A stretch of 64,000 nucleotides of DNA, from positions 57,226,001-57,290,000 of the forward strand of contig OX597827.1 in the NCBI GenBank assembly GCA_951406725.2, given 5' to 3'. The notes under the pieces were generated by a model. It saw nothing but the letters and a program-made list of their open reading frames with translations, searched no databases and was not told the origin of the DNA. The first letter of the stretch is position 1; the number at the start of each line of letters is the position of its first letter. A program made the translations under genes and the position numbers. This stretch comes from Octopus vulgaris (lineage: Eukaryota). Shown piece by piece: positions 4,846 through 54,004 of this stretch.

Positions 4846-6030
4846 GTCATTATAGATTATCGGTGTTGACTGAAGAAACAACAAACCAGAACTACATACT
4901 TTATACTCTCAATTCCGAATTCTTTGTATACTCCACCAAGGAGGAGCATTGCCTCTCTATTTTCTTTCATTACCCCCCCTCCCACACACACACACACACT
5001 CATCTTCCAACGCCCCACTCCGATGGAAGCGATCGAAAGACTAATTTCTAGTAATGAAATTCCTTGGACATATTTAATTTATCTCCAGATTCCGATCTGT
5101 GTGAAAACGTATTATTGTTATTTATAAGGTTTCGAGTATCAAAGTAAACCGAACAAATGTTATTTCTTTCACTCTCTCTTTTTTTTCTTCTGTTTAGTTG
5201 TTTATCTATCTGTCCATCTATCTGTCTGTATGTATGTCTCTCTCTTTCTTTCTCTCTGTCCGTCCCTCCACAACTCTTTCCTTTTCTGCCTGTATGTCTC
5301 TCTTTCTCTCTGATTTATTCTTTGTTTTGATTATGTTTATACTTTTTGTCAACGAATACATAGCTTGACGGACAGCCGTGATCAATCTCGTCCGCACGGT
5401 CATCCATTCGCTCATCATCTTCATTTGCCAGACTTTTCACAAAAATCAAATTCAAGAACAAAGAGCCAATGGAAATGAATTAATTGGCAAGTATATAATT
5501 TGGTTACGAAGAAGTTAGCGTTCACAGTAGAGTTGCAAACATCCGTCTACCTTCTCCGTAAATTGTATTTTTTTTTAAAATAAATTCTTACAGTATTTTT
5601 TGTTCTTTTTTTTCAGTTTATAGTATTCCGATTTTGTTTAGATTCCAGAAAGAAGTTTTCAAAGTTGTATTTCTGATTAAATGTTTCATTACAAGCTTGA
5701 ATATGTTTAGTTGTTTGTCGGTCAGCCAAACAACAAACAGCCTGTATTTCCACTTTCATATATTATTAGGGGCGGGAAGCTTGTGGCCAAGTGGTTAGAG
5801 TGTTGCACGCAAGGTCGCGGTTTCGATTTCCGAACTAGGCAGGGTGTTGTGCTCATGAGTAAAATACTTCATTTCTCGTTGGTCCAGTCCACTCACCTGT
5901 AAAATAAGTGACCCTACGACGGTGGAATTTTGTGAATTTGGTCACTTAAACGTCAAAGAAATCGAGAAAGCGGCCTTATGAGTACACGTACTCAAGACAA
6001 ATAAAAATATATATATTATTAGAGCGGTGA

Positions 6031-6549: not shown

Positions 6550-7251
6550 AAACAAATTGGACCACATCTATAGATTATTTTTTAATACAAAACATAACAT
6601 AACATTTCTATGACATAACATTTCTTACAGCCGTTTCCGCTTCCAATGCCTGTTGGTGCTTACGAAAGAATTTCCAAAATAATATTTGTCGTCTTCATAG
6701 GACATTCGATCTAGTACATGGAGCTTCGTCAGAGTGAATACAAATGCGTAAAATAAAATAAACGAAAGGAAGAGAGAATAGGAAAGAACAGAGCCTCGAG
6801 AAGAAGCCAGAAGGATCAATATATTAATATCATACCATCTTCCAGCGTGGAGCTTTGAACTCGATAGGTAAAAGAATGATCTAGCAGTAGCCTAGGGAAA
6901 TATTTACGGGATATTTCTATATAAAGGGGGAACCAGGATGTTAGAAAAGTAGTGAAAGGAAGTTAGCACTCAAATAAAACAAGAAATTACCAATATGTCT
7001 AGGAAGATAATAGCACTTATGCTTTCGTAAATTGCGCTAGTTGATATTTATCCCAAAACAAAACCATAGGGTTCTTAATGTACTTAATGAAAGATTGTAG
7101 AGACCTCCACCTGTTGCCCGCAGTGGAATTGACCAAAGTCTATCCATCACTACAGTTAGTCAATTATATTTGAACCAAGGGCAAAAGTTAAAACCGTTTC
7201 AGGGGATATGTAAAAAAAAAAAATGATCTACAGATGTGGTCCAATTTGTTT
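6550..7251. mobile_element. Putative non-autonomous DNA transposon bounded by ~34-bp inverted repeats
   Basis: aaacaaattggaccacatctatagattattt (from 6550) versus aaatgatctacagatgtggtccaatttgttt (to 7251), two mismatches. No clear TSD. Confidence 0.55.
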
Positions 7252-9027: not shown

Positions 9028-9645
9028 AGGTGGCGAGCTGGCAGAATCATTAGCACGCCGGGAGAAATGCTTAGCGGTATTTCGTCTGCCGCTACGTTCT
9101 GAGTTCAAATTCCGCTGAGGTCGACTTTGCCTTTCATCCTTTCGGGTCGATTAAATAAGTACTAGTTACGCACTGGGATCGATATAATCGACTTAATACC
9201 TATGTCTATCCTTGTTTGTCCCCTCTGTGTTTAGCCCCTTGTGGGTAGTAAAGAAATAGGTATTTCGTCTGCGGTTACGTTCTGAGTTCAAATTCCACCG
9301 AGGTCGACTTTGCCTTTCATCCTTTCGGGGTCGATTAAATAAGTACTAGTTACGCACTGGGATCGATATAATTGACTTAATCCCTTTGTCTGTCCTTGTT
9401 TGTCCTCTCTATGTTTAGCCTCTTGTGGGCAATAAAGAAATAAGAATCGTTAGCACGCCAGGCAAAATGCTTCGCGGCATTTTGTCTATTTTTACATTCT
9501 GAGTTCGATTTCCGTTGATGTCAGCTTTACCTTTCATCCTTTCGGGTTCGATAAAGTAATTACCAGTTGAGCTATGGGGTTGATGTAATTGACTTAATCC
9601 CTTTCCTGAACTTGCTGGTCTTGTGCCAAAACTTGAAACCAATAT
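9028..9645 (+). mobile_element. SINE family B multimer (three units)
   Basis: Head at 9028, repeated core units starting near 9259 and 9445. Confidence 0.9.
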
Positions 9646-14815: not shown

Positions 14816-14866
<51 letters not shown>

Positions 14867-14939
14867 GTGACCGCGTGTGTATCGTTGGCAATTTTCTTTC
14901 TCCGTCTTCCCTTTAGACTTTTTCTATATTTCTGATGAA

Positions 14940-34644: not shown

Positions 34645-35437
34645 GCGAGCTGGCAGAAACGTTAGCACGCCGGGCTAAAATGCCTAGCGGTATCTCGTCT
34701 GCCGTTACGTTCTGAGTTCAAATTCCGCCGAGGTCAACTTTACCTTTCATCCTTTCGGGGTCGATTAAATAAGTACCAGTTACGTACTGGGGTCGATATG
34801 ACCGACTTAACCCGTTTGTCTCTCCTTGTTTGTCCTCTGTGTGTTTAGCCCCTTGTGGGTAGTAAAGAAATAGGTATCTCGTCTGCCGTTACGTTCTGAG
34901 TTCAAATTCCGCCGAGGTCAACTTTGCCTTTCATCCTTTCGGGGTCGATTAAATAAGTACCAGTTACGTACTGGGGTCGATATGACCGACTTAACCCGTT
35001 TGTCTCTCCTTGTTTGTCCTCTCTGTGTTTAGCCCCTTGTGGGTAATAAAGAAATAGAAATAGGTATCTCGTCTGCCGTTACGTTCTGAGTTCAAATTCC
35101 GCCGAGGTCAACTTTGCCTTTCATCCTTTCGGGGTCGATTAAATAAGTACCAGTTACGCACTGGTGTCGATATAATCGACTTAACCCGTCTGTCTGTCCT
35201 TGTTTGTCTCATCTGTGTTTAGCCCCTTGTGGGTAATAAAGAAATAGAAATAGGTATCTCGTCTGCCGTTACGTTCTGAGTTCAAATTCCGCCGAGGTCA
35301 ACTTTGCCTTTCATCCTTTCGGGGTCGATTAAATAAGTACCAGTTACGCACTGGGGTCGATGTAATCGACTTAATCCGTCTGTCTGCCCTTGTTTGTCCC
35401 CTCTATGTTTAGCCCCTTGTGGACAATAAAGAAATGG
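34645..35437 (+). repeat. Tandem tetramer of SINE family B (units of 184-190 bp) within one 12-bp TSD
   Basis: Units start at 34689, 34873, 35063 and 35253. TSD gtatttacagcg at 34636-34647 and 35438-35449. Confidence 0.93.
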
Positions 35438-37883: not shown

Positions 37884-38269
37884 GGTAGTGTGACCTTGCC
37901 GGGGCGGAATTTGTTAATTTCGTTCCTGACACTGATCCATTTTCTCTTTTAAATCAAAACATGATATCAAACTTTTTATAGGATACCGGCAAGTGATAAA
38001 TAGTATTTGTCTTTTCCATCTTAAATGAAAGATTATACCATTATACCATTACCAATGCATACTTAAAAGGTAAAGGCAATACAAACAACAACAACAGCAA
38101 CAACGGCAAAAAAAAAACGAATGGACTGTAACAGTGACACCCACCATTATGACCACCACCATCACCATCTGTACCACTATGACACGCACTACCGGTGTCG
38201 CTGCAATAAAAGGCGGTGATGACGATGACGATAAAGATAATGAAAAGACCATCAACAGCAACAATATAT

Positions 38270-38680
38270 ATCTTTATTGCCCACAAGGGGCTAAACACAG
38301 AGAGGACAAACAAGGACAGACAAGCGGATTAAGTCGATTACATCGACCCCAGTGCATAACTAGTACTTTATTTATCGACTCCGAAAGGATGAAAGGCAAA
38401 GTCGATCTCGGCGGAATTTGAACTCAGAACGTAACGGCAGACGAATTACCTATTTCTTTACTACCCACAAGGGGCTAAACACAGAGGGGACAAACAAGGA
38501 CAGACAAACGGTCAAGTTGATTACATCGACCCCCCAGTGCGTAACTGGTACTTAATTTATCGACCCCGAAAGGATGAAAGGCAAAGTCGATCTCGGCGGA
38601 ATTTGAACTCAGAACGTAACGGCAGACGAATTACCGCTAAGCATTTCGCCCGGCGCGCTAACCTTTCTGCCGGCTCACTA
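38270..38680 (-). mobile_element. SINE family B dimer
   Basis: Two reverse-complement core units. Confidence 0.9.
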
Positions 38681-43710: not shown

Positions 43711-43751
<41 letters not shown>

Positions 43752-43753
<2 letters not shown>

Positions 43754-43974
43754 GTTAATCTAAACATGAAAACACAAAGAGAAAACACAACAACGCGAGG
43801 ACGTGGAACAAGTATAGTGTTATTGGACGCTCAGGAAAGGAAGAAAGAAGGAGGATTTAACGTTTCGAGCGGAACTCTTCGTCAGAAACATAGGAAAAGG
43901 AAAGATCCAATGAAGGGAAGACGGAGGAAAACAAATTGTCAACGATACACACGCGGTCACATTTTGAATGACCG
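43752..43974 (-). mobile_element. (TA)n-embedded non-coding element with a hammerhead-like core
   Basis: Minus strand CTGACGA-A-GAG-ttccg-CTC-GAAA-CGTT (43859-43885). Stem I is only 3-4 bp. Homologous fragment at 14867-14939 (+). Confidence 0.55.
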
Positions 43975-44013
<39 letters not shown>

Positions 44014-44050
44014 CATATATATATATACATATATATACATATATATATAC

Positions 44051-44130
<80 letters not shown>

Positions 44131-44215
44131 TCTAATATAGGATAGAATTTTTCGAAAAAAATTCTATCAATGGCCAGCATATTAAAAAATACCTTTAAAG
44201 GTTAAATTTATAAAC

Positions 44216-44285
44216 AATTTATAAGTAAGGGCAAAAGAAAAAATTTGGCAATAGGAATTTTTTCTTTTGCCCTTACTTATAAATT
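44216..44285. repeat. Perfect 30-bp inverted repeat with a 10-nt loop
   Basis: aatttataagtaagggcaaaagaaaaaatt / tggcaatagg / aattttttcttttgcccttacttataaatt. Confidence 0.95.
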
Positions 44286-44497
44286 TTATACAGATATCTT
44301 TGTTTTAGTCATTGGACTGTGGTCATGCTGGGATACCGTTTTGAAGACTTTTAACTGAACAAATCAACCCCAGTCCTTATCTGTTAAAGTCTGGTACTTC
44401 TTTACTGTCTTTTGTCGAACCGGTAACGTAGCGGGATATGAACAAACCAACACCAGATGTCGAGCAGTGGGGCAGGACGACAAACACAAACACGCTC

Positions 44498-44534
<37 letters not shown>

Positions 44535-45275
44535 TACATGACGGGCTTCCACACAGTTTCCGACTACCACTCAAAAGACATTGGTCCGTCCGGGGCTTTA
44601 CTAGAAGACACGATACGGCGCATCACCAAGGATTGAACTAGAAACCATGAGGTTTCGAATGAAATTTCTTGACTGCCATAATCACTATCTTCGGTATTAT
44701 CACAAACAAAAATTTTTTTACTGACCTCAAAATAATGTATTCTTACATCGGCACAAGACTAACCAAACTATTTTTCAACATTATTAGTGACAGAAGCAGT
44801 GTTAGTACCAAAAGTCAATCCTTATATCCAACAGAACGTGGACGTCTTGTTCGAATGTCGAACACAGCGCTATTAGCCTCATATCCTCTCATATAGGCGC
44901 ATAGATCGGAGCTGACGAAAATCGTTTGTTATGGACACCAGAACATCCATATCAACTGATTTCAGTGGGAGGCGTCCGGTGACAGCATACCAGCCAAATC
45001 TCGCCCCCACGATATTTAGAATGTCAGCAATATTTTTAGAGGTTAATAACTCAGTATTCAGCGTTCTAACAAGACATTCATGTTAAGTTGGATATAAAGA
45101 TTATTTTGCAAGCGATGTATGGGTATATATATCCGAAGGCAGTATATTTGCACACTCGTCAAAGCAGCATTACCCAACCAAAGTTTCCTGGAACCCTAGT
45201 GACCTGTGAGAGTCGACTGGAGTTTTGCGAATAATAGAGATAAATAGACTAATTATATACAAGTGTGTGAGTTTT

Positions 45276-45686
45276 TCCCCTCTGTGTTTAGCCCCTTGTG
45301 GGTAGTAAAGAAATAGGTATTTCGTCTGCCGCTACGTTCTGAGTTCAAATTCCGCCGAGGTTGACTTTGCCTTTCATCCTTTCGGGGTCGATTAAATCAG
45401 TAGCACTTACGCACTGGGATCAATATAATCGATTTAATCCGTTTGTCTGTCCTTGTTTGTCCTGTCTGTGTTTAGCCTCTTGTGGGTAGTAAAGAAATAT
45501 GTATTTCGTCTGCCGCTACGTTCTGAGTTCCAATCCCGCCGAAGTCGACTTTGTCTTTCATTTTTCGGGATCGATAAATCAAGTACCAGTTACGCACTGG
45601 GGTCAAGATGTAATCGACTTAATCCGTTCGTTTGTCCTTGTTTGTCCCCTCTATGTTTAGCCCCTTGTGGGCAATAAAGAAATAAG
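45276..45686 (+). mobile_element. SINE family B multimer (headless)
   Basis: A tail fragment followed by two core units. Confidence 0.85.
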
Positions 45687-45808
45687 AAGCTTTCTTCGCA
45701 ACCACATGGTCCCGGATTCAGTCCCACTGCGGGACACCTCGGGCAAGCGTCTTCTACTATAGCATCGGGCCGACCAAAGCCTTGCCAGGGCACTTGTAGA
45801 CACCCGTC

Positions 45809-45853
<45 letters not shown>

Positions 45854-45980
45854 ATAGTAGAAGACACTTGCTCGATGTGCCCCGCAGTGGGACTGAATCC
45901 GGGAACATGTGGTTGGGAAGAAAGCTTCTTTTTTCTTTATTGCCCATTGCCCACAAGGGGCTAAACATAGAGGGGACATG

Positions 45981-46066
<86 letters not shown>

Positions 46067-46344
46067 TAATATATATAAAGATATATATACATATGTCTGT
46101 GTATGTGTTTGTGTGTGTGTGTATTTGTCCCCAACAACGCTTGACAACCGATGCTGGTGTGTTTACGTCCCCATAACTTAGCGGTTTGGCAAAAGAGACC
46201 GATACAATAAGAACTAGGCTTACAAAGAATAAGTCCTGGGTTCGATTTTCTCAACTGAAGGCGGTGCTTCAGCATGGCCGCAGTCAAAATGACTGAAACA
46301 AGTTAAAGAGTAAAGATATATGTGTGTGTATATATATATATATA

Positions 46345-46531
46345 GGGAGAATTCACAAAAAAAAAAACGACGAAGACAGGTGGTGTAAACAACAAACAGC
46401 TATATTAGTATAATGCTCGGGAAGTGAAAAGGTCTTTAAGATTTCGAGCCTACGCTCTTCCACAGAAAAAGGAATAGAGAAAGAAACAACGAAAAAAAAT
46501 TAAGAATGTGTAGTCGCTATCGATCTATCAT
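46345..46531 (-). mobile_element. (TA)n-embedded element with a degenerate hammerhead-like core
   Basis: Minus strand CTGTGGA-A-GAG-cgtagg-CTC-GAAA-tctta (46437-46465). Same layout as 43752-43974. Confidence 0.4.
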
Positions 46532-46717
46532 GATATATATGTATATATATATATGTCTGTATGTCTGTGTTGACCCCCCCACACACACACACACACACCA
46601 TCGCTTGACAATCGATGTTGGTGTGTTTACGCCCTCGTAACTTAACGGTTCGGCAATTGTAACCGATTGAATAATTACTAGGCTTACAAAAATAAGCTCT
46701 GGGGTCAACAAAAGCAT

Positions 46718-46765
<48 letters not shown>

Positions 46766-46856
46766 ATACACGTCGTGTATATATACACACACACACACAC
46801 ACACACATATATACGTCGAGATAGCTAGACGGACAGACAGATAGAGAGAGAGAGAG

Positions 46857-46928
<72 letters not shown>

Positions 46929-47164
46929 GGATGGATTGATAGATAATGTGCATGGTAGGCGTGAGAACGTGTGTATGAATGCATATGCGCTGATTCCTTC
47001 TACCAGGTATCATCCCAGGGCTGTAGGAGTAACGCTCAAGATACTACGTAGTGGGACCGAACCCGAAACAAGGTACTTACGAAGCGAACTTTCTAACCGT
47101 ACACCCACTGCCTACGCTCATGGATGTTTATGCATAAATAAGTAAATAAATATATATATTATTC

Positions 47165-47324
47165 TATTCTTTTACTTGTTTCAGTCATTTGACTGTGGCC
47201 TTGCTGGAGCACCGCCCTTTTAGTCGAGCAAATCGATCCCAGGACTTATTCTTTGTAAGCCTAGTACTTATTCTATCGGGGACGTAAACACACCAGCATC
47301 GGTTGTTAAGGGATGGTGGGGGCA

Positions 47325-47365
<41 letters not shown>

Positions 47366-47520
47366 GATGGGCTTCTTTCAGTTTCCGTTTACCAAATCCA
47401 CTCACAAGCCTTTGGTCGGCCCGAGACTATAGTAGAAGACACTAGCTAAAAGTTGTCACTCAGTGAGACTGAACTCGGAACCATGTGGTTGGTAAGCAAG
47501 CTACATACCACACAGCCACT
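47165..47520 (-). mobile_element. SINE family A
   Basis: Tail, (CA)n and head present. Confidence 0.9.
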
Positions 47521-47521
47521 C

Positions 47522-47576
<55 letters not shown>

Positions 47577-47780
47577 TACTTACTGGTAATGGACAGAGTG
47601 ACAATTAAGGTGTCAGTAGTGGCGGTTGTAGAAGTGGTGGTAGCGGTGATGGCGGTGGTTATAGGTGACGATTCTGCTTTGCAAAACGTAGGTGGCGTTG
47701 TGAGATGTTTCTATAAATATCTGTATTTTGAAATTGCATAAAAGAAAATCAAAAGCAACGACTACAACCACAACTACAAT

Positions 47781-47812
<32 letters not shown>

Positions 47813-48412
47813 TCAATACTTTTGAAAGGCGTTGTTGTTGTTGTTGTTGTTCTGGTGGTGGTAGCGGTGGTGGTGGTGGTGGTTTTGGTGGTGGTGCGTG
47901 GAAGGATCGATATTATGAGAGGAACGATGACTATTAAATCTGTAGTGACGGAATGAGTGATTATAAGGAAGAGAAAAAAGTTCGTTTGTGATATAGTGGC
48001 TGTGTTAGGATGATGATGATGATGAGGAGGAGGAGGAGGAGGAGGAGGTGGCGGTGGTTGTGGTGGTTGTGGTCGTGGTGGAGGTGTGGCACTGTTAATG
48101 TCATGGACAGGGCGATTCCGACTGGTAAAAGATTAAAAACAAAAACCAAAAAAAAAAAAAAAATCAAAAAGAAGTGGTTTAGTGGTGGTGGTGGTGGTGG
48201 TGGTGGTGGTGGTGGTGGTGGTGGGGATGTGACGACACCCTGGGTGGAAAGAAAGGTGGGCGGTGAACTCGATGGATACTTACTTGGGGTGGCTGACGAA
48301 GGAAATCGGGACGACGGAGGCGGTGGCGACGGTGACTGACTGCAATGACCGCGATGTGGTGGTAGTAGTAGTATTAGTAGTAGTAGTAGTGGTGGTGGTG
48401 GTGGTGGTGGTG

Positions 48413-48473
<61 letters not shown>

Positions 48474-48763
48474 GGGTGATGGTTGCGGTGGTGGTGGTGG
48501 TGGTGGTGGAAGTGGTTGTGGAGGCGGTTGTGGTGGTTGTGGTGGTATCAGTGACAGATTTAGTGTTCAGGCTATTTATAGAAACATCGGCCAAGCAAAA
48601 GAGAAGGAATTGTTTATTATAGAGAGGGAAAGAAGGAAAGGGGGAAGAAATAACGCAAGTTTTGAGTGAGAGGGGGAGAAGGAGAGAGGGAGTGCAAGAG
48701 AGAAAGATAGAAGACGATGAAGAAGAGAAAGAAAGAGAGTGAGCGAGAGAGAGATAGGGAGTT

Positions 48764-48801
<38 letters not shown>

Positions 48802-48916
48802 CATATGTTCGTTAATGCAATTATAGCTCTCTTCTGCATGCTTCTACCCCCACGGCTCCACCTCTCTCAAAATTGTTATGTTTGTATGTACCTATGTACA
48901 TATATGTGTGTACGTA

Positions 48917-48947
<31 letters not shown>

Positions 48948-48958
48948 TTATATGTATG

Positions 48959-48992
<34 letters not shown>

Positions 48993-49217
48993 ACTTTGTA
49001 TGTATGCGCACTTTTACGCAAGTTTATTTATCCATTTATTGCGTGCGTGTGTTTTGTGTGAAGCAGAAGACCGAAAAGCGAAGACGGATGGTGAGAGAGG
49101 AAGAGAGCAAGAGAAGTAAAGAGAAAGACAAGTAAGTTATGGAAGAGGGGGTGTGAGTTAACGAAAGAGAATGAGGCGGCGGCGATAATCGGTTATATGA
49201 ATGGCTGACAGAACTGT

Positions 49218-49310
49218 CCAATGAAATGTAGTTTACAACACAGGGACGGAAAGAACGCGTAACAAACACTATACTATATAAAGAGACCCGGGGAAAACAT
49301 TAGGCAGTGA
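49218..49310 (+). promoter_or_regulatory. Candidate Pol II core promoter (CCAAT - TATA - Inr)
   Basis: CCAAT at 49218, TATATAAAG at 49275-49283, and Inr-like gCAGTg with its A at 49306 (31 nt from the TATA start), in non-repetitive sequence. Confidence 0.4.
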
Positions 49311-50392
49311 AACAACGCACTACGTACTACACCCTACACATGCATAAACTGTGTGTTCCGCTTATATATGTGACTCTCGTATGATAAAAAGACACAGAAA
49401 GAGAGTGACAGAGAGGAAGAAGAAAAGAGGCATCCAGTTGTTTTCTTTTATATATACCTGTATATATATGTGCACGGTTTCATTGAAAAGTTATCTAAGA
49501 CTATTAAAGCGAACGGCCATAACACAAAAACTCAGTTGATTGATTTATAAGTTAATACAGAACTAAAATAATACTAATAGTAATAATAATAATAATAATA
49601 ACAACAACAACAACAACAACAACAATAAAGATAATTTTGATTTGGCCTTGTAATTCGCGAAGAAACATTTCAGAGAAGGAATTTTTTTAAAAAAAGGCAA
49701 TCAGGAAAAAAATATAAATAAAAGAGAGAGAAAGAAAGAGCGAAAGAAGAAAGATAAGGCAAAAAAAATAATAATATATATATATATATATATATACAAA
49801 AGCAAAACGAAGAAACATTAGAAAATATACATTAAAAAGGGTATTTTGCGAGTGAGAGGTGTTAATGTCTTTCTTGAGTACCAAAAGTGGAGCGAAAACC
49901 GGTAAGGATAAAAGTGTTTCTTTGTGATAAGTTTTGGAAGTTTTAGAAGTTTACCATTGAAATCTATTAAAAAGAAGTAAAAAAAAACAAACAAAAAACA
50001 AAAAAAAGAAACGATAAAAACTAAAAGAAATATATTTACTGATTTACTGAGCAAGAATATCAGCCTCAATATTTATACGTGTCTGTGTGTTTGCGAGTAT
50101 GAGTGCATGCGTGTATGTATGAGTATACAAACATATAGACGTATATAACGAATTTAAACAGTAATAAGATATAAGATATAAGAATAAGATATAAAGTTTG
50201 TATACTGCCTCATTTTTTTTTTTTTTCGTGTTTTTTACGTCGTCCGCATTGGAAATCTTTACTTTCTAAATTACCCGGTGAAAGAGATAGACACTTGAAA
50301 CAGGTAGGAATTTTCTTCGGTTATCACAATCATCATTCTTGACATCCTCCTCCTCATCATCATTATCACCAACATTCTTCTTCTTCTTCTTC

Positions 50393-50460
<68 letters not shown>

Positions 50461-50463
50461 ATT

Positions 50464-50495
<32 letters not shown>

Positions 50496-50721
50496 TATTA
50501 TTATTGTTATTATAATTATTGTTGTTGTTGGTGTTGTTGTTATTATCATTATTATTATTATTATTATTATTATCATTATTATTGCTATCTGCAACAACAA
50601 CAGCAATCAGCATCATGATGAAAATCATACTCAAAAAGATATCTACATCATCGTCATAACTATATTGCATTTTATGCTCAAATGCCCAGCGAAGCCTATA
50701 GATACATTTTTATGAGTGTTC

Positions 50722-50794
<73 letters not shown>

Positions 50795-50799
50795 TATAT

Positions 50800-50947
50800 T
50801 TTATTCTTTTATTTGTTTGAGTTATTTGACTGCGGCCATGCTAGAGCACCGCTAAGTTACGAGGACGTAAACACACCGACATCGGTTGTCAAGTGACGGT
50901 GGGGGCGGGGACAAACACAGACACAAATATATACATATATATGTGTG

Positions 50948-50983
<36 letters not shown>

Positions 50984-51128
50984 ACAGGCTTCTTTCAGTT
51001 TCCATCTACCTAATCCACTCACAAGGCTTTGGTTGGCCCGAAGTTATAGTAGAAGAAACTAGCCCAAGGTGCCACCCAGTGGGACTGAACCAAGAACCAT
51101 GTGGTTGGTAAGCAAGCTACATACCACA
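50800..51128 (-). mobile_element. SINE family A (internally deleted)
   Basis: Homology to 62399-62817. Confidence 0.85.
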
Positions 51129-51199
51129 CTCACACACATACACACACAAACACACACACACATATAATTGTAAATATACATATATTACCTACCTACAAA

Positions 51200-51590
51200 T
51201 ATCCTCATTGCAGAGAGTGAGGGTCAGCAACCATAGATTTATGTATCATATTCATCCGTCCTGTATCTGTCTTTCTCTATGGTTAAGCATTCTGCCAGAG
51301 GTCTTGCAGACCATTCTTTGATGTCTTCAAACCTAGCATCTTCAAAGCCTCCTCCTTCCATGTTTCCCATTTGCTCTCACTTCTTGGATGCGACAACTAA
51401 GCTTTTGGGAGTTGACGATAAGCCCAAAACTATAACTTTCTCTTCGTAAGAGTTGCCAATAACAGTACGACGGTTTACCCAGCTGATCATCAGTACTTTT
51501 CGGTAACACGTGTTACAAATGCATTCAGTGTGTCAGTGTCATTTGCTGTTAGGCTCCAGTTTTCACATCAATACAGTGCAACAGGTCAAT
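51200..51590 (-). pseudogene. Decayed RTE-like LINE 3' fragment
   Basis: Minus-strand translation PVALY*CENWSLT...TLNAF...YRKVLMISWVNRRT matches the RTE LYGxExW...ISW motif. Confidence 0.65.
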
Positions 51591-51620
51591 TCATATATGT
51601 ATACACATAAACATATGCAC

Positions 51621-51669
<49 letters not shown>

Positions 51670-51749
51670 ATATAAGATTATATAGATATAAGATTATCGC
51701 CATGGGCTCCTTGAGAGCGGTCAGCTAAAAGTTTTTTGTGCATTTTGAT

Positions 51750-51868
51750 GTCGACATAAGTTCCTTGATTTTCTGATGAGAAATCTGCATAATGTACTCC
51801 TTATTCCTTCGGAATTAGGAATATGCAGCCTTCGAAACATATGTCGAGAATAAAGGATATTTGTTAAC
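51750..51868 (+). ncRNA. Type-I hammerhead ribozyme-like motif with a long stem II
   Basis: CTGATGA at 51773-51779; stem II ctgcata..tcct-t-attcc-ttc-ggaat-t-agga..tatgcag; GAAA at 51834-51837; palindromic ACATATGT; GTC triplet; imperfect stem I tccttgatttt / gagaataaagga. Inside a (TA)n-flanked insert at 51668-51890. Confidence 0.6.
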
Positions 51869-51886
51869 TAGTCGTTCAACTCCATT

Positions 51887-51938
<52 letters not shown>

Positions 51939-52211
51939 GGGTTTGTATGATTGTGTACAGAGGGATATATATTATTCAAAGAAATTCCAACTCTGTTTTT
52001 TATGTTTTATTTATATTCTTTATAATATTAATGTAGAATATAGAATATATAGTATAAATAGTATATATAGTAGTATAATGAAATGAAGTATTGATTGTCT
52101 TATTGAATAGATGAAGTATTGAATATCAAATATTAAGGGATTAGTATACTTTCTTGCATTAAAGCAGTCTTCAAGGTCCCAGGTTGTGACAGGAGTGTTT
52201 CAACTGTGTGA

Positions 52212-52253
<42 letters not shown>

Positions 52254-52470
52254 ATATATACAGGCCTATATACTGGAATATGATCACATATATGTACATA
52301 TATACATATTTTATATATAAAATACATACCTATATAAATCTAAATATAATTCTCACGTGAATATTTCTTATAACTACATGTACACACACACACATATATA
52401 TTCTGTCAAATACATATATATATATATATGTGTGTATGTATACATGTTCATCTACATATATATGAATGTG

Positions 52471-52559
<89 letters not shown>

Positions 52560-52734
52560 TTAATATAGAAACATGTGCATACATACGTATTGAATACATC
52601 TGTATTTAAATGTACATACATATGTATTCATATATATATATATATATATTAGAAGAAATGATGTACTCAGAAATTCGGATGGTTTTATATTTAAAGATAT
52701 TTATTTGTATATTACATGTTTTTATACATCATAT

Positions 52735-52796
52735 AACTTAGATCATATATTAGCGCTTTCTCCCATTCTAGTGGGGTTTTCAAATCGATCTAAGTT
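52735..52796 (-). ncRNA. Degenerate hammerhead ribozyme-like motif
   Basis: Minus strand aacttagatc-gat-TTGAAAA-cccca-ctagaa-tggga-GAAA-gcgc-TA-atatat-gatctaagtt. The 10-bp distal stem I and palindromic AGCGCT are intact, but the core is mutated. Insert 52650-52843 is flanked by (TA)n. Confidence 0.45.
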
Positions 52797-52908
52797 CCTG
52801 TGAAAATGTTTTGACCATTTTATAGCGTTATTGAGTGTGTATTATATATATTTATATATATATATATAAAGAGAGAGAAATATATATATATATGTATGTA
52901 TATATATT

Positions 52909-52968
<60 letters not shown>

Positions 52969-53048
52969 TATTTAAATGTATAAGCATGTATACATATATA
53001 TATGTGTGTGTGTGTGTATGTGTGCGCGCGTGTGTACACACACACATA

Positions 53049-53209
53049 GGCGCAAGAGTGGCTTCTTGCTAAGAAGTATCCTTCGCAACCACATGGTTCC
53101 GTGTTCAGTCCCACTGTGTTGCACTTTGGACAAGTATCTTCTGGCATATCCTCGGGCTAAACAAAGCCTTGTGAGCGGATTTGATAGACGGAAACTAAAA
53201 GAAGCACGT

Positions 53210-53253
<44 letters not shown>

Positions 53254-53462
53254 GTATGTATTCGTGTGTCAGTGTTTGTCCCCCCCCACCTACGCTTGAC
53301 AACGGATGTTGGTATGTTTATGTCCCAGTAACTTAGCTGTTCGGCAAAAGAGACCGATATGATAAGTTCGAGGCTGTCAAAGAATAGGATCAATTTATTC
53401 GACTGAAGGCGGTGATCCAGCATGGCCTCAGTCAAATGACTGAAACAAGTAAAAAAATAAAA
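53049..53462 (+). mobile_element. SINE family A
   Basis: ggcgcaagagtggc head through the gactgaaacaagtaaaa tail. Confidence 0.88.
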
Positions 53463-53631
53463 GTTCATATATATCTTGACTATTGAGTAATTGTAACATA
53501 TTATTTTATAGATAAATTTCCTCTATTTACATAATATTGAGGTCTCTTTCTTTCTTTTGTTATCTTACCGTTTTTACCAATATATATATATATATATAAT
53601 ATTAATGAACAGGAGATGGATTCCGTATTAA

Positions 53632-53699
53632 ATCTTAATTGGGTACAACATATGTTTCGACCCATCAGCCTGGGTCTCTTCAGGTGCATCGATAAAGAT
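53632..53699 (-). ncRNA. Minimal type-I hammerhead ribozyme
   Basis: Minus strand gcac-CTGAAGA-GACCCA-ggctga-TGGGTC-GAAA-CATATG-TT-gtac: intact core, perfect 6-bp stem II, palindromic stem III, GUU triplet, and distal stem I atctt/aagat. Insert 53598-53851 is flanked by (TA)n. Confidence 0.72.
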
Positions 53700-54004
53700 A
53701 TATCACACTACTAACCTTTAGCGTCGGCTGACTTGTTGTTATATGTCCATCAAGTTAGAAAATGAATAAAAGCAAATAATATTACAGAAACTATGCCGAT
53801 GCTCTACTCAATATTTAAACACAATTATCGACTTATATTTATTGTCCACACTATATATATATATATATATATGTGTGTACGTGTGTGTGTTTGTGCGTGT
53901 GTGTGTGTGTGTGTGTGTGTCATTATACAGTTTTATTTCAAGATTTCTTGCGAATAGAGAAAGAGCCGGTTTCTAACCTTGATCCAAGGATCCTCTATGT
54001 ATGA

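Follow-up and report, generated by a model that had tools for sequence, protein, structure and literature searches.

Five short inserts in (TA)n tracts of Octopus vulgaris and their probable origin as hammerhead-bearing 3' ends of Penelope-like elements

A 64,000-nucleotide stretch of the Octopus vulgaris genome (assembly GCA_951406725.2, contig OX597827.1, positions 57,226,001 to 57,290,000 of the forward strand; below, "the window", numbered from its first letter) carries five short inserts with TA runs on both flanks, which we name E1 (43752), E2 (46345), E3 (51668), E4 (52650) and E5 (53598) after an earlier reading of the letters alone (the sequence-only reading). Judged by motifs and family alignments, E1 (43752–43974, minus strand) reads as the 5'-truncated 3' end, i.e., the pseudo-long terminal repeat (pseudo-LTR), of a Neptune-type Penelope-like element, with its (TA)n target, a TA run, at 43733–43751. 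E2 (46345–46531, minus) and E4 (52650–52841, minus) read as 3' ends of a second and a third Neptune-type family, E3 (51693–51890, plus) as that of a young Hydra-type family, and E5 as that of an older Hydra-type family, whose sense arm (53598–53791, minus) is joined head-to-head to an inverted arm (53788–53851, plus) identified by its match to the family's 3' tail. The window sequence agrees with the sequence-only reading that five inserts lie at about these places between TA repeats, but two boundaries have to be redrawn: the E3 element begins at about 51693, the segment 51668–51692 being without match to its family, and 53598–53851 is not one insert but two arms, the sense arm running from 53791 to 53598 and the other being the distal part (about nt 85–168) of the family's optional 3' tail in reverse orientation. 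E1 and E2 are the sole sequence-related pair (74% over 61 nt, E 6e-4), as the same reading had remarked. The mean divergence is 0.3% in the E3 family (among best matches) and 13% in the E5 family. A sixth piece, E1-like (81% over 89 nt), lies at 14860–14939 on the plus strand, where it ends within the hammerhead core and adjoins a (TCTA)n run.

All five inserts bear hammerhead or hammerhead-like motifs. E1 has a minimal type I motif on the minus strand (CUGACGA-A-stem II-GAAA-CGU; core position 3 at 43885, predicted cleavage after 43859), while E3 (plus; core at 51773, predicted cleavage after 51845) and E5 (minus; core CUGAAGA at 53683, predicted cleavage after 53647) have canonical type I cores with stem III ACAUAUGU, stem II being long in E3 and the window copy of E3 lacking one C of stem I. 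On the minus strand, E4 reads UUGAAAA (a U3:A8 swap; core at 52783, position 17 at 52751), with stem III AGCGCU and a C-A mismatch at the base of stem II, and E2 reads CUGUGGA (A6U; position 3 at 46465). The CUGANGA box announced for all five inserts is therefore present in E1, E3 and E5 and missing from E2 and E4, in both cases family-wide. The four palindromic versions of stem III were correctly recognised, in DNA letters ACGT (43752), ACATATGT (51668), AGCGCT (52650) and ACATATGT (53598); the fifth, in E2, is indeed non-palindromic in the window copy (ATCT), where it is broken, but the family majority is ACGT. The full type I layout (CUGANGA, GAAA and NUH with three helices) is found in E1, E3 and E5, and in E4 by way of U3:A8, while E2 fails it at U6. 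When the window is searched with a strict type I pattern that requires a palindromic stem III, the three matches are E1, E3 and E5; 30 local dinucleotide shuffles gave 0.17 matches on average and at most 2. The description of the motifs as type I hammerheads, minimal or with a small stem III, is upheld. For each family, 40 candidates were scored and 30 copies fetched; CUGANGA is kept in 27/30 copies of E1, 30/30 of E3 and 23/30 of E5, CUGUGGA in 30/30 aligned, query-selected copies of E2, and UUGAAAA in 28/30 aligned copies of E4.

The base pairing of these motifs could be followed in the E3 lineage, where 8 of 27 pairs, the stem III palindrome included, have changed on both sides, a result reached by 0 of 500 shuffles (six related sequences, whose kinship inflates the count), and where 89% of the alignment cells are paired, compared with 29–50% when the alignment is slid. 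It is in this lineage alone that covariation upholds the proposal that structure is conserved more than sequence. No hammerhead appears among the 150 Rfam window matches listed and no gathering-level hammerhead hit was obtained in five loci, hence Rfam is uninformative for motifs this minimal. Minimum free energy (MFE) folding favours dimers by 3–13 kcal/mol, an outcome that palindromes give by construction and that we do not use as support; the MFE folds of the inserts are mostly not the active ones. Four contig sets from presumed RNA runs on an E3 copy contained no circular joint. Several RNA contigs end 3–4 nt before the predicted E3 cleavage site, others span it, and one starts where graph convergence predicts; these were counted neither way. 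In the flanks of nine loci (L006, L026, L034, L035, L058, L074, L154, L159 and L242), we also came across further, unrelated type I motifs with palindromic stem III, that of L159 being another U3:A8 core, which suggests that the genome (2.8 Gb, 227 contigs, microsatellite-rich) holds many more such families.

All five inserts belong to dispersed families, as multi-copy elements had been expected to, with 1993 (E1), 2462 (E2), 1604 (E3), 2126 (E4) and 553 (E5) first-look candidates, totals that are not copy numbers. Of the 29 non-window copies per family on which TA runs and tails were counted, 28 (E1), 25 (E2), 28 (E3), 25 (E4) and 17 (E5) have a TA run after the 3' end, compared with 1001 of 6000 background windows (17%), so that the (TA)n targeting proposed from the window alone extends to every family. 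The 3' ends are fixed at (TA)n, while the 5' extents vary from about 150 nt to more than 1 kb and pile up at certain distances from the 3' end (E2: 23/29 at 182–194 nt; E1: 17/29 at 210–231 nt; E3: 7/30 at 198–205 nt), in clusters rather than at exact positions. Optional 3' tails, probed in E3–E5, occur in 13/29 copies of E3 (about 170 nt), 10/29 of E4 (about 36 nt) and 11/29 of E5 (about 150 nt); in E3, the tail corresponds to the beginning of the element body and continues to the start codon of its open reading frame (ORF). Inverted, 5'-truncated arms lie within 1.5 kb upstream in 13 (E5), 12 (E3), 3 (E4), 1 (E1) and 0 (E2) of 30 loci per family, the window E5 arm being an example, and such tails and inverted arms have been described for Penelope-like elements (PMC8557442, PMC3846280). 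Near the 5'-end pile-up, about 190–200 nt upstream of the 3' end, the E2 and E3 lineages share a CGCCATG word (L255, L300, L122–L150, L063), and TCAT words stand at the equivalent place in E1, E3 and E5. We take these CGCCATG and initiator-like TCAT words to be possible parts of a pseudo-LTR promoter.

The inserts themselves are non-coding, as the sequence-only reading had it, but they end coding elements. In each of the five families, longer copies extend into the frame of a GIY-YIG endonuclease, and in four (E1–E4) a reverse transcriptase (RT) lies further upstream, a link to endonuclease and RT frames that supports the earlier suggestion of a Penelope connection. RT with C-terminal GIY-YIG precedes the 3' repeat in E1–E4, and endonuclease only in E5. 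In E1, a CA-rich untranslated region (UTR) is followed upstream by a Neptune-type endonuclease in 7/30 long copies, with RT motifs further up in L204, L205 and L209; in E2, a Neptune-type frame lies upstream in 11/30 long copies. The GIY-YIG frame of E3 is found about 680 nt upstream, with RT beyond it (L151, L253 and others), and 6 of 12 loci selected by their RT have the E3 end (at least 87% identity) downstream. For E4, the endonuclease lies about 1 kb upstream in 3/29 copies (Pfam matches in L152: GIY-YIG 1e-5, RT 3e-5), and 7 of 12 endonuclease-selected loci have the E4 end. For E5, a decayed Hydra-type endonuclease is present upstream in three independent loci of 29 (L044, L049, L052). 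That independent loci repeatedly show these links at similar spacing speaks against chance nesting. One candidate link was rejected: the Neptune-type frame upstream of the E3 copies L086/L087 belongs to a different element, into which E3 was inserted.

Sister families, whose pseudo-LTRs are 72–79% identical to those of the window families, have open frames of 1008, 1119, 775 and 896–934 aa, including a 1119-aa frame between two pseudo-LTRs in the E2 sister (L300) and a 775-aa frame in the young E4 sister. Units of the form pseudo-LTR–ORF–pseudo-LTR, or full tandems, were seen for sisters of E1 (L200, L201, L202-203, L208), E2 (L299, L300, L302) and E3 (L255), and none for E4 or E5. In the L200 unit, the 3' UTR of the young E1 sister is CA-rich, measures 2.9 kb and has two GC-rich, structured-looking islands (about 4900–5100 and 6600–6800).

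Clades were assigned by scanning the frames of sister families for motifs and comparing them with published alignment rows (PMC8557442 supplement). By these motifs, E1, E2 and E4 are Neptune-type, their lineages having DKG, a CX2-5CxxC linker and CCHH-type endonuclease residues, and E3 and E5 are Hydra-type: the E3 lineage combines DKT, RWL rather than RWK, Hydra-like RT motifs, an endonuclease with CxxC and CxH and no CCHH, a canonical hammerhead and (TA)n insertion, while E5 is placed by its endonuclease end only. An isolated piece of Hydra-type endonuclease matches Pfam GIY-YIG at 6e-4, and the decayed frame linked to E5 still shows a remnant of CxC. In the E3-lineage frames L253, L254 and L255, the zinc-finger linker is replaced by an N/S-rich segment that separates the thumb region from the endonuclease; rotifer Penelope elements are reported to contain N-rich inserts (PMC3846280).

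Altogether, fixed 3' ends with variable 5' ends, coding frames upstream and the lack of arrays point to pseudo-LTR ends of coding elements rather than to separate retrozyme families. The five inserts are very probably 5'-truncated 3' ends of five coding Penelope-like families, of which three are Neptune-type and two Hydra-type; the inserts were likely made by a GIY-YIG nick in (TA)n followed by a short RT copy. The proposal of several non-autonomous families mobilised in trans does not fit families that each extend 5' into a GIY-YIG frame from ends of varying position. In this process, the element's own endonuclease would nick the (TA)n tract and its RT would copy just about 200 nt of element RNA. 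On the model of the anole Poseidon element (PMC11167929), reverse transcription would be primed at either of two internal sites located shortly downstream of the pseudo-LTR, yielding ends with or without a tail, and an inverted arm would result if copying began from both nicked strands. The pile-up of 5' ends 180–230 nt from the 3' end may reflect run-off at the transcript 5' end within the upstream pseudo-LTR, which would explain the roughly equal length of all five inserts. The hammerhead would then be a passenger of the pseudo-LTR; its cleavage would probably depend on dimer formation or on assistance by protein, and could be weak or absent in the lineages with variant cores.

Several observations weigh against this reading. 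For E1, E2, E4 and E5 themselves, we found no single frame that is both complete and open, the intact ones coming from sister families; the longest E3 frame seen has 713 aa. For E5, no linked RT was found, and the endonuclease tie is to a decayed frame in 3/29 copies. Two long Hydra-type frames gave no Pfam hit at E<0.01, and the CxCX5C linker described for Hydra is absent from E3-lineage frames, for which reason we call E3 Hydra-type and not a strict member of Hydra. Finally, the short E2 copies, which cluster at 182–194 nt (23/29) and differ from long copies at two sites, would also fit a short subfamily copied in trans.

This last point leads to the best-surviving alternative, unlikely in our judgement, that E2 and E1 (the most plausible cases) come from short non-autonomous subfamilies of solo pseudo-LTRs, which would be transcribed independently and depend for their mobility on a related Penelope-like enzyme acting in trans. 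The pile-ups of 5' ends in both families are what it would lead one to expect, and a solo copy could be expressed, as the promoter of Drosophila Penelope sits in its pseudo-LTR and drives transcription from there (PMC2377424); moreover, retrozymes have been derived from pseudo-LTRs (bioRxiv 10.64898/2026.07.22.740005). However, the 5' ends are clustered and not exact, no diagnostic site separates short from long copies of E1, the two sites of E2 are weak (one is a G/A site present in both groups, the other falls within a T run), and long, ORF-linked copies bear the same pseudo-LTR. Much less probable is the retrozyme-like nature that the sequence-only reading had also entertained, i.e., that the inserts are monomers of non-LTR retrozymes, tandem-arrayed and processed by the hammerhead through circular RNA. 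Their size of 190–250 nt and type I hammerheads would suit metazoan retrozymes (PMC7229834), as would the canonical cores of E3 and E5, but the tandem copies to be looked for are missing: in none of the 150 loci does one copy directly abut another head to tail, and just five have a second copy on the same strand, 400–950 nt away. Furthermore, the predicted cleavage site falls 45–115 nt inside the inserts rather than at their ends, and upstream sequence runs on into RT and endonuclease frames. As for chance matches in AT-rich repeats, to which the silence of Rfam and the two non-canonical cores might be ascribed, the excess of strict matches over shuffles, the double changes of the E3 lineage and a motif position at the very pseudo-LTR site where such ribozymes are published make them so improbable that, from the sequences compared, a chance origin of E1, E3 and E5 as motifs can be considered refuted, catalytic activity being a separate question.

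If the inserts are truncated ends of coding Penelope-like elements, the state of the hammerhead core in their lineages deserves attention. Among 20 E2-lineage loci chosen by their endonuclease, the motif is present in 18, units with long open frames included, and U6 in all 18, while N7 varies over all four bases and H17 between U and A. The young E4 sister with the 775-aa frame has GCAA for GAAA (A13C) besides U3:A8 in the four loci fetched, and the young E1 sister has C4 (U4C) in 10/10 motifs from five loci, its stem I being reduced to one pair. Over ORF-selected representatives, the motif block is 88% identical in the E2 lineage (nine sequences) and 94% in the E4 lineage (11), compared with 59–73% for the rest of the pseudo-LTR, although ragged alignment ends depress the flank figures. 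We rejected the idea that the canonical E1 core is a product of CpG decay from CCGA, CUGA having the majority in an unbiased E1 set (21/30 CUGANGA, six with C4), which makes it the likely family state. A13 is required for hammerhead cleavage. The U3-A8 variant is published for schistosome elements (PMC4209133), and natural A6C and U4C variants are described as having low and reduced activity, respectively (PMC3088659). For an A6U or CUGUNGA core, the literature text held nothing relevant, a weak negative, since it covers neither figures nor bioRxiv supplements.

Near-identical copies and open frames indicate that the sister families are likely mobile at present, and their variant cores are predicted to cleave perhaps weakly or not at all. 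It is therefore conceivable, and we propose it tentatively, that young Neptune families of three lineages fix core changes expected to cripple catalysis while keeping the fold, so that the hammerhead would serve as a non-cleaving signal in the ribonucleoprotein; alternatively, U6 may mark an undescribed active core. If the former were true, it would amount to natural in vivo evidence that Penelope-like retrotransposition needs no self-cleavage. The sister families span core states (canonical, A6U, U3:A8, A13C, U4C), several of them with long open frames, and thus provide a small natural panel of RNAs that makes the purpose of the hammerhead directly testable.

Some features of the window and of the fetched loci are recorded here for completeness. 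A repeat of 184–190 nt occurs in two to four tandem copies at 9076–9442, 34689–35435, 38267–38635 and 45271–45684, amid abundant repeats resembling short interspersed nuclear elements (SINEs), and a near-perfect inverted repeat of SINE-like sequence with a (TA)n tract at its centre lies at 45718–45896. Locus L155 shows a tandem duplication (2.9 kb) of a Neptune-type fragment and a truncated E3 copy whose inverted arm is short; next to these, the same Neptune-type element occurs again in inverted orientation.

That Penelope-like elements leave truncated, hammerhead-bearing ends in (TA)n is already known, and since 31 recently active Penelope-like families are annotated in Octopus vulgaris (PMC13282606), those described here may already be in a curated library. 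Their recognition nevertheless has annotation value, such pieces being easily misfiled as SINEs, retrozymes or repeats of unknown type. What is less common is that some related, likely mobile families keep the hammerhead fold with an altered catalytic core, which touches the wider question of what the pseudo-LTR hammerhead is for, its published activity being low and its cleavage dispensable in one in vitro system.

With metazoan non-LTR retrozymes (PMC7229834; bioRxiv 10.64898/2026.07.22.740005), the inserts share short size, a type I hammerhead and pseudo-LTR ancestry, but they form no head-to-tail arrays, have no fixed unit length and are preceded by coding sequence in longer copies. The closest precedent for the motifs is the set of metazoan Penelope-like pseudo-LTR hammerheads of Cervera and de la Pena (2014, PMC4209133), in which type I layout, palindromic stem III, an extra nucleotide between A9 and stem II (as in E1 and E2) and a U3-A8 variant (as in E4) are all reported, mostly for single dispersed copies from truncated elements, as here. 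The A6U of the E2 lineage, the A13C of the young E4 sister and the U4C with collapsed stem I of the young E1 sister are absent from the text of that study, a comparison that leaves aside the "exceptional core changes" of its Fig. 2. The lineages of E1, E2 and E4 match the Neptune clade (Neptune1_Ap etc., PMC8557442) in DKG, CX2-5CxxC, the internal cysteines and histidines of GIY-YIG and microsatellite targeting, a likeness drawn from motifs; they differ in the long CA-rich 3' UTR of the E1 sister (up to about 2.9 kb) and in the fixation of non-canonical cores. With the Hydra clade, which includes Hydra-1_Obim (Craig et al. 2021, PMC8557442), the E3 lineage has in common DKT, RW[L/K], a divergent RT4, CxxC/CxH, a canonical hammerhead and (TA)n insertion, and the E5 endonuclease is of the same type; E3 nevertheless has an N/S-rich segment instead of the CxCX5C linker, and the hammerheads of E3 and E5 differ from the motif listed for Hydra-1_Obim, which makes them other families. 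Finally, the green anole Poseidon (Frangieh et al. 2024, PMC11167929) has, as here, two alternative 3' ends, AT-rich targets and a tail that is the start of the downstream body; two internal priming sites were shown for it, and hammerhead mutants did not impair its insertion in vitro. Poseidon belongs to another clade, and in the octopus elements the E3 ORF starts downstream of the hammerhead and the Hydra-type tails measure about 150–170 nt.

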